IMG/VR virus record: IMGVR_UViG_3300033067_000833
Span: 12,344-76,343 of that record
Reading direction: 5' to 3' (one strand)
Source of the DNA: a virus
Taxonomy: Duplodnaviria > Caudoviricetes
DNA length: 64,000 nucleotides
The notes below the pieces were generated by a model that saw nothing but the letters and a program-made list of their open reading frames with translations, was not told the origin of the DNA and did no database searches. The translations under genes and the position numbers were made by a program. Of this stretch, positions 6,614 through 24,011 are shown piece by piece (positions within the stretch are counted from its first letter, which is position 1; every line of letters starts with the position of its first letter).

Positions 6614-7018
6614 ATGCCAAATTCACCAGCCCCTGAACCCTGGCGAGGCCCATCGCAGATCGAGTCCCATCGCAACGACAGATCGAGGGGCCGGGCCAGC
6701 TTCTACGACGCGAACCGCATGTTGGTCGGGTTCACAATCATCCGTGAGGTTGAGAAGGACGGGTCAAAGCACAACTGGTCCTACGGGGCCAAGCGCAGGA
6801 GAGACAGGATCGTCGCGTGCGTGAACACCTGCCAAGGCATCCCGGACGACATGTTGTCCAGGGAAGGGATCCTGGCCCTGGCAATCCAGCTGATGCGGCG
6901 GGCCTGCGATTTCGGCGATCTGCACTTGCAGACGCTGCCCGACCGAATCGCAGCCAACATGACGGACTTGTACTACGGGACGATTCTGAACAAGGAAAGG
7001 ATCAGCCATGAACAATGA
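6614..7018 (+). CDS. Hypothetical phage protein
   Basis: RIVACVNTCQGI motif common in small phage proteins; overlaps the next start. Confidence 0.6.
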   Translation: MPNSPAPEPWRGPSQIESHRNDRSRGRASFYDANRMLVGFTIIREVEKDGSKHNWSYGAKRRRDRIVACVNTCQGIPDDMLSREGILALAIQLMRRACDFGDLHLQTLPDRIAANMTDLYYGTILNKERISHEQ

Positions 7019-8081
7019 CGAAATGAACAAGACTGCCGAACAGCTAGCTCGGTTGAGAAACCACATGGAGCGCAAACTGCGCCGCCGTGCGGAACGTGCC
7101 TTTTTCAAGTACCACTCCGAATTGGAGCGGAGGGAACGCGAGGAAGCCGCCGAGCAAAAGGCTCACGAGGAAGCCGGTCGCATCTCCCGCGACCAGAAGC
7201 TGGCATGGATCTACGCCCGAGCCTCGCACGCGGAAAACTCGGACACCGACTCGATCCCCGCCCAGATCGACCGCTGCCGGCGCCGCTTCCATGCGTCCTG
7301 GGAGTCCCGCGGCTACATGCTCGCCAACATCGAGCCCGACCGGATCACCAGCGCCTCGAAGATCAACTTCTTCGACCGGACCAACGGCGGGCTGATCGGG
7401 CGGCTGGCCCAGGCCGGCGACGTGATCCTGGTGGACAAGATGACGCGGATCTTCCGGTCCCTGCCCGACTTCGTCATGACCCAAAAGGAACTCGACAACC
7501 GTGGCATCCTGATGGAGATTGGGGACTGCGCGTTCTGCTCGGACCCTAACAACCCATTCTACCGGGCCATGATCGTGATGATGGCCATGTTCGCCGAGAT
7601 GGAGTCCGCCCAGACCTCGATGCGGATCAAGCAGGCGTTCGATCGACGGCGAGAGGCGGGGGCCGACATTATTGGCACGCCTCCATTCGGTGTGGAAATG
7701 GTTCGCATCGTCAAGCCCGGCTACGGCGAGAAGCCGCTGAAGTTCCGCCAGTGGCAAAAGTGGGAGCGGTCAATCATGAACGCGGTCTGCATCAAGGCGG
7801 ACAAGGAAGGCTGGTCGCAAAAGGAAGTCACCGACTGGCTGAACCTGGTGGTTCTCCGGGAGAAGAAGATTCCGCACAAGTCGGCCAACTTCAAGTACCC
7901 GCTGACCGAGAGCATGGTCCTGCGAATGTATTGGTGGGAGAAGATGTTCCGGCTGTACAGCGTGAGCGACGTGAAGCAGACGCGGGGCATGTCCATCAGC
8001 AAGGCCGGCTGGATTCACGGCACCTTGGCGCTGCGTTGGGAAGCGATCCAGAAAATCGGGTGGCTGCCGCTGCCGGAGTGA
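7008..8081 (+). CDS. Serine recombinase (resolvase catalytic domain plus C-terminal extension)
   Basis: WIYARAS catalytic motif, SI.AQ, DVILVDKMTRIFRS, MFAEMESAQTSMRIK. Confidence 0.85.
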   Translation: MNNDEMNKTAEQLARLRNHMERKLRRRAERAFFKYHSELERREREEAAEQKAHEEAGRISRDQKLAWIYARASHAENSDTDSIPAQIDRCRRRFHASWESRGYMLANIEPDRITSASKINFFDRTNGGLIGRLAQAGDVILVDKMTRIFRSLPDFVMTQKELDNRGILMEIGDCAFCSDPNNPFYRAMIVMMAMFAEMESAQTSMRIKQAFDRRREAGADIIGTPPFGVEMVRIVKPGYGEKPLKFRQWQKWERSIMNAVCIKADKEGWSQKEVTDWLNLVVLREKKIPHKSANFKYPLTESMVLRMYWWEKMFRLYSVSDVKQTRGMSISKAGWIHGTLALRWEAIQKIGWLPLPE

Positions 8082-21766: not shown

Positions 21767-21871
21767 GGGACCGTGGCGTAAATGGAAAACGCTGCTTTGC
21801 AAAGGGCACCTACCGCTGGTCAGCAGCGGGGCGCTGGAGCCAACATGCGGGTTCGATTCCCGCCGGTCCCT
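21767..21871 (+). tRNA. Atypical tRNA-Cys(GCA)-like RNA with an oversized variable region
   Basis: GGGACCG/CGGTCCC acceptor, U discriminator, GCGT-AAATGGAAA-ACGC D-arm, TTGCAAA loop on a weak bulged stem, 38-nt variable region, GCGGG-TTCGATT-CCCGC; no encoded CCA. Confidence 0.5.
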
Positions 21872-22132
21872 CTGGAATCCAGCTTGCCGCCAGTGGCCCC
21901 GGTGATTCGCCGGGTGCCGATACTGGTGGGCGACGATGGTGAGCGTCCGGCATTACGCCAAAGCTTTCAGGTAGTTTTCCTGAGTACAGGACCGCAAGCT
22001 AAACTACCTGCATCTTTGGCCTAAGTGCTCCTTGTGGATTCCGCACGGTTTGCGCTGCCTGTGGATGGCCCGGTGACATCGCCGGGGACCGCAGAAGCAG
22101 GCGACGAAGGTAAATTTCTCGCATCGACAAAT

Positions 22133-22355: not shown

Positions 22356-22556
22356 ATGACCATGCTTGTTCTGACCCGCCACGACGGCCAGAAGATCGTC
22401 CTGCCCGCGTTGGGCGTGACGTTCACCGTCGTCCGCATCGAAGGGGACCGCGTGCGTATCGGCATCGAGGCCCCGCGTGATGTGAAGATCCTGCGCAACG
22501 AGCATTTCCCCTTGAAGGCACTGGAGGATGACCATGACAGCGACCGCAACCCGTAA
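22356..22556 (+). CDS. csrA: Carbon storage regulator CsrA-like RNA-binding protein
   Basis: MLVLTR..GQKI.....TFTVVRIEGDRVRIGIEAPRDVKILRNE. Confidence 0.9.
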   Translation: MTMLVLTRHDGQKIVLPALGVTFTVVRIEGDRVRIGIEAPRDVKILRNEHFPLKALEDDHDSDRNP

Positions 22557-23118
22557 GCGTGGCCTGCCGTTCAAGCGGCTGTCCAAGGCCGCCAAGGAGC
22601 GGGCCATCGAGTGGATGCGTGACAAGCTCAATGGCGACTGGTTCGACCCAGAACCGCTGACCGAACTGTTTCGAGAGCACCTTGCCGAGCACGGGTTCCC
22701 GAACATGGAGGCTTACTGGTCGCTGGGACACTGCCAGGGCGATGGCGTTGACATCGAGGGCTCGATCGACATCGGCAAGTTAGCCGAGACGGACGAGTTC
22801 GTGCTGACTTGTCTCGCCAAGGGCGTGCTGCTGGGTGTAGGAACCTTGGATGATTGGGACTTTAGCTGCAAAGTGAAGTGTAGCCGGGTCGAACTGGAAT
22901 GGATGTGCTACAGCAACGCATTTCATGACTGTCAGAGTGCCGTTGACGACATTGGACTGGCACTGAAAAAGCATCTGAATGACCTCATTTACAGCTTGCA
23001 ACGGAAGCTCTCCAAGTACGGATACGACGAAATCAACTACCTGACATCCAAGGAGCGCGCCATCGAGAGCATCGAGGCCAACGACTACAGCTTCGACTGT
23101 GAAGGAGACATCCTGTGA
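22528..23118 (+). CDS. Conserved hypothetical early protein
   Basis: LSKAAKERAIEW...ESIEANDYSFDCEG pattern common in mobile elements; its stop overlaps the RT start. Confidence 0.65.
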   Translation: MTMTATATRKRGLPFKRLSKAAKERAIEWMRDKLNGDWFDPEPLTELFREHLAEHGFPNMEAYWSLGHCQGDGVDIEGSIDIGKLAETDEFVLTCLAKGVLLGVGTLDDWDFSCKVKCSRVELEWMCYSNAFHDCQSAVDDIGLALKKHLNDLIYSLQRKLSKYGYDEINYLTSKERAIESIEANDYSFDCEGDIL

Positions 23119-24011
23119 CCAGACGCAAAGCCCGAACCCCGAAGCCCGAGTTCGACATTCTCAAGATCAGCAAAGGCAATGGCAAGTTCCGCACGATTTA
23201 TCGCCCCCGCCGGGACATCAAGGCGACGCTGCGGACCTACATCCCGGTCCTGGAGGAGATTGCCCTGAAGCTCTGCCCGCCCAACGTGGTGCATGGCTTC
23301 TGGCCCGCCCGCAACTGCGTGTCGAACGCGCAGATGCACGTTGGGACGTGGCGGTACACCGTCTGCATGAACCTGAAGGACTTCTTCGACCACTGCACAG
23401 ACGCGATGCTGGGGCCTGCAATCGACCCGCAGCCAGCGTTTCACGGGAGCATCCCACGGATACTGACCCCGGATGGTGCTTGCCGCCAGGGCCTGCCAAC
23501 GTCCCCCGCCGCGGCCAACGTATGCTTCGCGGCGTGCGACCACGACATCATCAGCGCCCTCAAGGCGGCCGGCATCCAGTTCGTCTACTCCCGCTACGCC
23601 GACGACCTCACGTTTTCGGTGATGACACGGGAAGCGGTTGACGCGATACTGAGCATCGTTCCCAAGGTGGTCCGCGACCGTGGCTTCGTCCTGAACGAGA
23701 AGAAAACCCACGTCCAGTACGCCGGGGCCGGGCGTCGTGTGATTACGGGCGTCGCCGTGGACGAGACGAGCGTGTACCCCACGCGGAAGTCTCGCCGCCG
23801 GCTGCGGGCCGCCAAGCACAAGATGACCCTCCCGTGCAAGTACGGGGTGGGGCTGCACCGCAAGCACCGGGCCGCTGGGCTCGCCGAGTGGTGCAAGTGC
23901 AAGCCGCCCATGTACGGGCGCAAGGCTCGTAAAGAGATGGCGGGCAATCCGGACGAGGCGTTGTTGATCGCTGCCAAGGCCAAGCAGTACGGAGTGCAGG
24001 ATCATGCCTGA
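23115..24011 (+). CDS. Retron-type reverse transcriptase with Asn at the motif-A catalytic position
   Basis: ISKGNGKFRTIYRP, HGF, NAQMH (NAxxH), MNLKDFF, RQGLPTSP, YSRYADDLTFS, NEKKT, VITG; GAAGGAG RBS. Confidence 0.9.
   Translation: MTRRKARTPKPEFDILKISKGNGKFRTIYRPRRDIKATLRTYIPVLEEIALKLCPPNVVHGFWPARNCVSNAQMHVGTWRYTVCMNLKDFFDHCTDAMLGPAIDPQPAFHGSIPRILTPDGACRQGLPTSPAAANVCFAACDHDIISALKAAGIQFVYSRYADDLTFSVMTREAVDAILSIVPKVVRDRGFVLNEKKTHVQYAGAGRRVITGVAVDETSVYPTRKSRRRLRAAKHKMTLPCKYGVGLHRKHRAAGLAEWCKCKPPMYGRKARKEMAGNPDEALLIAAKAKQYGVQDHA

Follow-up and report, generated by a model that had tools for sequence, protein, structure and literature searches.

The NAxxH and VTG motifs are specific to the reverse transcriptases (RTs) of retrons. 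In RTs in general, the catalytic metal ions are bound by the aspartate of motif A together with the aspartates of the YxDD motif. In HIV-1 RT, DNA polymerisation activity was lost when the aspartate at the equivalent motif-A site was replaced (D110A and D110N; PMC2810339), and the D110N mutant serves as an RT-defective control (bioRxiv 10.64898/2026.04.21.719790). The RT gene described here comes from an uncultured phage and encodes an asparagine, N86, at this site. The phage is represented by an IMG/VR virus contig of 76,343 bases with an estimated completeness of 68%, and the window refers to the whole stretch of 64,000 nucleotides of this record that was analyzed.

The RT gene is located in the phage early/replication module and all genes around it lie on the same strand. 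It is preceded by genes for a MoxR-like ATPase and a DUF2201 metallopeptidase/VWA protein, a non-coding block of 780 nt, a CsrA-like gene and a gene for a 196-aa protein. Downstream, it is followed by two small genes and by genes for a clamp-loader-like AAA ATPase, an HNH endonuclease, a DUF6094 methyltransferase, a PAPS-reductase-like protein (a reading of the ORF translation) and a sigma factor (likewise a reading, as the Pfam Sigma70 matches belong to the syntenic gene of contig L001). This gene order was common to the metagenomic contigs L001, L006, L007, L008 and L009. Overlapping frames chain the CsrA-like gene, the 196-aa gene and the RT, whose GTG start overlaps the TGA stop of the gene upstream. 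The CsrA-like gene was present in the syntenic contigs L001 and L002 and in L006, and was uncalled in L007-L009; the 196-aa gene occurred in L001, L002 and L007, whereas L008 and L009 lacked it or had another gene in its place. The 196-aa protein had no match in Pfam, NCBIfam or among PDB sequences, and PHROGs and the Atlas returned phage families annotated as 'unknown' only. Neither of these two genes matched an effector family in Pfam or NCBIfam, PADLOC having been run on the RT only. The record contained no second RT gene. The sole recombinase found in the record was a serine recombinase at 7008-8081 on the + strand (Pfam Resolvase, 2.7e-20); a tyrosine integrase was not found in it. The coordinates of the features are collected in the table.

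Table. Positions of the RT gene, its motifs and its upstream features in the window.
Feature	Position	Strand	Evidence or remark
tRNA-like element	21767-21871	+	Rfam tRNA, 38 bits; directly precedes the candidate RNA unit
Candidate structured RNA unit, ~175 nt	21872..22045	+	folds of four relatives, alignments A4 and A5, covariance model R1
CsrA-like gene, 66 aa	22356..22556	+	Pfam CsrA, 3.2e-16; phrog_9500; overlaps start of 196-aa gene
196-aa gene, phrog_5162	22528..23118	+	stop overlaps RT start
Retron-type RT gene, 298 aa, GTG start	23115..24011	+	ORF list, Pfam, PADLOC, PHROGs, NCBIfam, PDB
NAQMH, retron-type NAxxH motif, residues 71-75	23325..23339	+	A72 and H75 invariant; N71 nearly so
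Motif A, MNLKDFF, residues 85-91	23367..23387	+	(M/F)DLxDFF in relatives
Codon AAC, N86, site of the motif-A metal-binding Asp	23370..23372	+	GAC in relatives
Motif C, YADD, intact, residues 161-164	23595..23606	+	sequence reading and family alignment
ITGVAV, retron-type (V/I)TG motif; ITG is residues 210-212	23742..23759	+	G212 invariant

The identity of the protein was examined by profile searches and by structure prediction. It matched Pfam RVT_1 (2.6e-16) and was assigned to phrog_2825 in PHROGs. The top PADLOC matches were all retron RT types (1e-38 to 1e-30), the best models being those of types XIII, X, III-A and II-A (1e-38 to 1e-34). The best NCBIfam model, retron_St85_RT, scored 118 bits against a cut-off of 235, and the protein scored under the cut-off of every curated NCBIfam retron family. 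By sequence, the nearest solved structures were the RTs of retrons Ec86 (E 5.6e-18), Ec78 and Ec83. An AlphaFold model built with 42 homologues as input had a mean pLDDT of 91.3, and its best fold matches were retron RTs with TM scores of about 0.65-0.67; among the PDB fold matches listed, the top 11 were retron RTs, and the RTs of group II introns, diversity-generating retroelements (DGR), DRT and Abi systems ranked behind the retron RTs. The motifs NAxxH, QGLPTSP, YADD and (V/I)TG were kept across the family. Judged by its sequence and its predicted fold, the protein is thus a retron-type RT that falls outside every curated retron family; it is related to retron RTs and would work like them.

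The substitution itself was confirmed by direct reading of the window. The + strand reads TGC ATG AAC CTG AAG GAC TTC TTC GAC from 23364 to 23390, and the AAC within it is the codon of N86. A sequence-only reading had reported that the motif-A aspartate of this RT was changed to asparagine while YADD and the remaining frame were intact, and the AAC codon, MNLKDFF and YADD were all found as described. In a HMMER alignment, N86 was placed opposite the aspartate of NIDLEDFF, the motif-A aspartate of the solved retron Ec86 RT (a literature search for its residue number in the Ec86 RT gave no result). The AlphaFold model is consistent with this placement: a strand spanning residues 81-87 ends at N86, and YADD occupies the turn that connects strands 157-161 and 164-169, in the usual palm layout with the N86 strand. 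The catalytic triad, consisting of the motif-A Asp and the two Asp of YxDD, is incomplete at N86 in the window copy and complete in the homologues. The nearby residues D89 and D92 were considered as possible stand-ins for the missing aspartate: D86 was invariant in the relatives, D89 was kept in 198 of 245 homologues, and the positions are therefore not interchangeable in evolution.

To determine whether the asparagine is shared, the motif-A column was inspected in three sets of relatives, which may overlap. The family alignment comprised 249 proteins including the query, pooled from two database searches. Asp was present in all 245 homologues with a residue at this column, the query excluded; the remaining three were N-terminally truncated fragments that do not reach it. 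Asp was likewise found in each of the 79 relatives that were retrieved from viral contigs and in 79 of the 80 relatives from bacterial species genomes. The single exception (L099) had an F at the column in a local tblastn stretch unlike motif A, and looks like a local misalignment. The closest relatives, with 91, 86, 85, 84, 82 and 77% identity to the RT, read (M/I)DLKDFF. At the nucleotide level, L001, L002, L003 and L005 have GAC at the N86 codon, flanked by conserved codons. The window therefore differs from these by one G-to-A transition. No lineage with Asn at this column was found among the aligned homologues or the relatives from viral contigs and genomes, which answers the question, raised by the sequence-only reading, of whether close homologues share it. 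The mark of a pseudo-enzyme would be a catalytic loss that orthologues have in common and that selection maintains; here, Asn was confined to this assembly. Since no lineage keeps the Asn, nothing points to a maintained, catalytically dead form. Changes of this kind were also seen elsewhere in the family: the database homologue P0213 (415 aa) has YADN in place of YADD, a singleton among the 248 homologues, and suggests that one-off triad variants are part of the background in metagenomic data. Taken together, these comparisons indicate that N86 is a one-off. It would be a genuine loss-of-function allele or else an error of the consensus or assembly, and a dead enzyme that is conserved as such does not fit.

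The selection acting on the gene was assessed by comparison with its closest relatives. Pairwise dN/dS between the window RT gene and L001 or L002 was 0.16-0.22, the same as for L001 against L002. The family alignment has 46 columns with a conservation of 90% or higher, and N86 was the sole departure of the window protein among them. The window gene had three private amino-acid changes, P78T, D86N and G228S, at columns that were invariant in the other six closest genes; five of those six genes had 1-3 private changes of their own, and the most distant, L009, had 11. Private synonymous changes at codon-invariant columns numbered six in the window gene, 3-7 in five relatives and 20 in L009. The gene is thus under purifying selection. 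The dN/dS values, the single departure in 46 columns and the ordinary counts of private changes therefore gave no sign of prolonged relaxed selection, and on these comparisons the N86 change would be either recent or not real. A decaying gene was considered as well and was ruled out by the same observations, together with the reading frame, which is open from end to end like the frames of its relatives. In a comparison with L001, L002 and L006-L009, the RT was 77-91% identical and the clamp-loader-like ATPase 81-92%, and the CsrA-like, 196-, 66- and 185-aa proteins were 50-74% identical. The RT thus ranks with the most conserved proteins of the module, and its conservation above its small neighbors argues for an important function as an active polymerase in these phages.

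With moderate confidence, we favor N86 as a private and recent GAC-to-AAC change, which most likely created a polymerase-dead null allele and not an adapted pseudo-enzyme. In the proposed mechanism, the motif-A aspartate and the YADD aspartates would together hold two catalytic metal ions, and an amide in place of the former would abolish DNA synthesis or nearly so. By analogy with HIV-1 RT D110N, the N86 protein should be polymerase-dead; for HIV-1 RT, the mutants described above support the statement of the sequence-only reading that replacing this Asp by Asn normally cripples polymerisation. The sampled phage lineage would then carry a null allele, either as a segregating deleterious mutant or as a lysogen copy free of selection. 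We infer that the base is probably real rather than a consensus error, because the contig is long and carries intact, syntenic genes, because deleterious variants that have yet to be purged are frequent in recent lineages, and because P0213 with its YADN has a comparable singleton. It is somewhat surprising that a null allele should be the consensus in so conserved a gene, and the neighboring genes show no decay. As its first explanation, the sequence-only reading had proposed that GAC was recently changed to AAC or that the base is a read error, and the restriction of Asn to this assembly, the GAC codon of the closest relatives and the normal purifying selection all agree with it.

The second of these possibilities, that the phage has GAC and thus Asp, the A having entered the contig through an error in the consensus or through a minority variant that the assembler picked up, was judged rather unlikely, though it ranks next to the null allele. 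The change concerns a single base in a single assembly, and it strikes an invariant catalytic residue in a gene that otherwise looks functional and strongly constrained. The protein cluster of the window RT has one member from one contig, and searches for the phage in other records were negative: viral and metagenome contigs were scanned with exact patterns, one around the codon with R at the variable base and one from a lineage-specific stretch, and no second assembly was recovered from the records covered, which may leave out those nearest to the window. The scans returned only the 82%-identical relative, with GAC at the codon. Against an artefact, a 76-kb contig on which the genes are intact and syntenic is unlike a poor assembly. 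In general, a wrong base in the consensus is rare when coverage is as high as such contigs usually need, and real one-off deleterious variants are common among closely related genomes.

A real asparagine might also be tolerated, if the enzyme kept useful activity or if its main role did not depend on polymerisation, such as the binding or scaffolding of the RNA encoded upstream. The full-length gene, in which all other conserved positions are intact, would fit such a role, as would the conserved and structured RNA block that lies upstream in the same orientation. In this block, non-coding segments were conserved with L001, L006, L007 and L009 by blastn. The candidate RNA unit is on the RT strand, ~1.07 kb upstream of the RT, and has counterparts at L001:1864-2046, L006:2649-2828 and L007:1109-1292. 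Its closing duplex, GGAAUCCA/UGGAUUCC, surrounds two hairpins, a conserved one on the 5' side and a long one on the 3' side, and the same fold was obtained for four relatives. The 5' hairpin showed compensatory changes in both alignments (A4 and A5); the sequence of the 3' hairpin was wholly different between relatives. This layout resembles the msr/msd of retron non-coding RNAs, and the unit is a possible lead for a template or partner of the RT. The covariance model of the 5' hairpin (R1) also detected weaker copies, giving 2-4 matches per locus. Its search of RT loci at 25-43% identity gave no convincing matches, and a putative link between the RNA and the RT was therefore not generalized.

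The element directly in front of the RNA unit resembles a tRNA. Its acceptor, D and T arms match, with ~50 nt in place of the anticodon arm, and ARAGORN made no tRNA call anywhere in the window. Counterparts were a 70-nt tRNA at L006:1775-1844 (47.9 bits) and a 125-nt element at L001:602-726. Further downstream, the non-coding segment 22148-22239 (+) was 86-95% identical in L001, L006 and L007. It opens with a tRNA minihelix, whose parts are an acceptor-like stem (GCGUGCG/CGCACGC) and a T arm. Next comes one copy of the GGCCCCGGUG-loop-GCCGGG hairpin that is recurrent in the block.

Even with such an RNA at hand, tolerance of the asparagine is improbable. The triad would not stay invariant across some 400 relatives were polymerisation dispensable, the equivalent change inactivates HIV-1 RT, and the substitution was absent from the relatives. 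A more specific form, in which N86 is viable and the essential job of the RT is to bind or organize the upstream tRNA-like and hairpin RNA, so that a polymerase-dead protein would be tolerated, appears slightly more remote again; if true, N86 would represent a natural case of separation of function in a phage retron-type RT. Least credible is the decoy, a pseudo-RT that would be maintained for dominant-negative interference with host retron or DRT defences. Apart from the substitution and the location of the gene in a phage, nothing speaks for it. Asn was found in no homologue at any distance, the closest syntenic relatives have Asp, and a selected form would be expected in at least a small clade. 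The sequence-only reading had named Asp in all close homologues as a refuting result, and the Asp counts of the three sets of relatives thus refute its second alternative, a pseudo-RT with a role in RNA binding or as a decoy.

With a private null allele as the preferred explanation, the substitution matters little as a dead-RT finding, being a singleton variant that is absent from the relatives, and the lesson is that reads should be checked before biology is drawn from one codon. If this RT were to be cloned for functional work or retron-style editing, a relative with D86 would be preferable, as an inactive enzyme would otherwise be expected. The phage-borne RT clade and the adjoining RNA block merit attention in their own right. 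All relatives with more than 50% identity came from metagenomic or viral contigs, and the best match among 185,579 species genomes (one per species) was 39% identical. In these searches, the clade was therefore seen on phage-like metagenomic and viral contigs only.

The closest known systems are the retron RTs Ec86/Eco1, Ec78/Eco7, Ec83 and Ec67/Eco2, which have the RT fold in common with the window RT and provided its best sequence and structure matches. The NAxxH, QGxPxSP, YADD and (V/I)TG motifs and the size of ~300 aa are also found in both. Unlike retrons, the window RT is situated in a phage early/replication module and not in a bacterial defence island, has no recognized effector near it, and scores under the curated family cut-offs. 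There is also no non-coding RNA directly beside it, because the start of the RT overlaps the upstream gene and leaves no room. Its assignment to a complete retron system would be conjectural. It further differs from the retron RTs in having N86 instead of the motif-A Asp. The same substitution at the equivalent motif-A aspartate is known from HIV-1 RT, in which polymerisation was lost in the D110N and D110A mutants (PMC2810339). Those mutants were made in the laboratory in a distantly related RT, whereas N86 would be a natural, or apparently natural, variant of a phage gene. Lytic phages have also been noted to encode retron-like RTs. One of these, gp206 of the Staphylococcus jumbo phage MarsHill (bioRxiv 10.1101/2020.12.14.422802), is set apart by its description as a 501-aa protein with an extra N-terminal domain, unlike the 298-aa window RT. 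Like the window RT, however, it has a retron-like RT domain that occurs without the parts of a diversity-generating retroelement.
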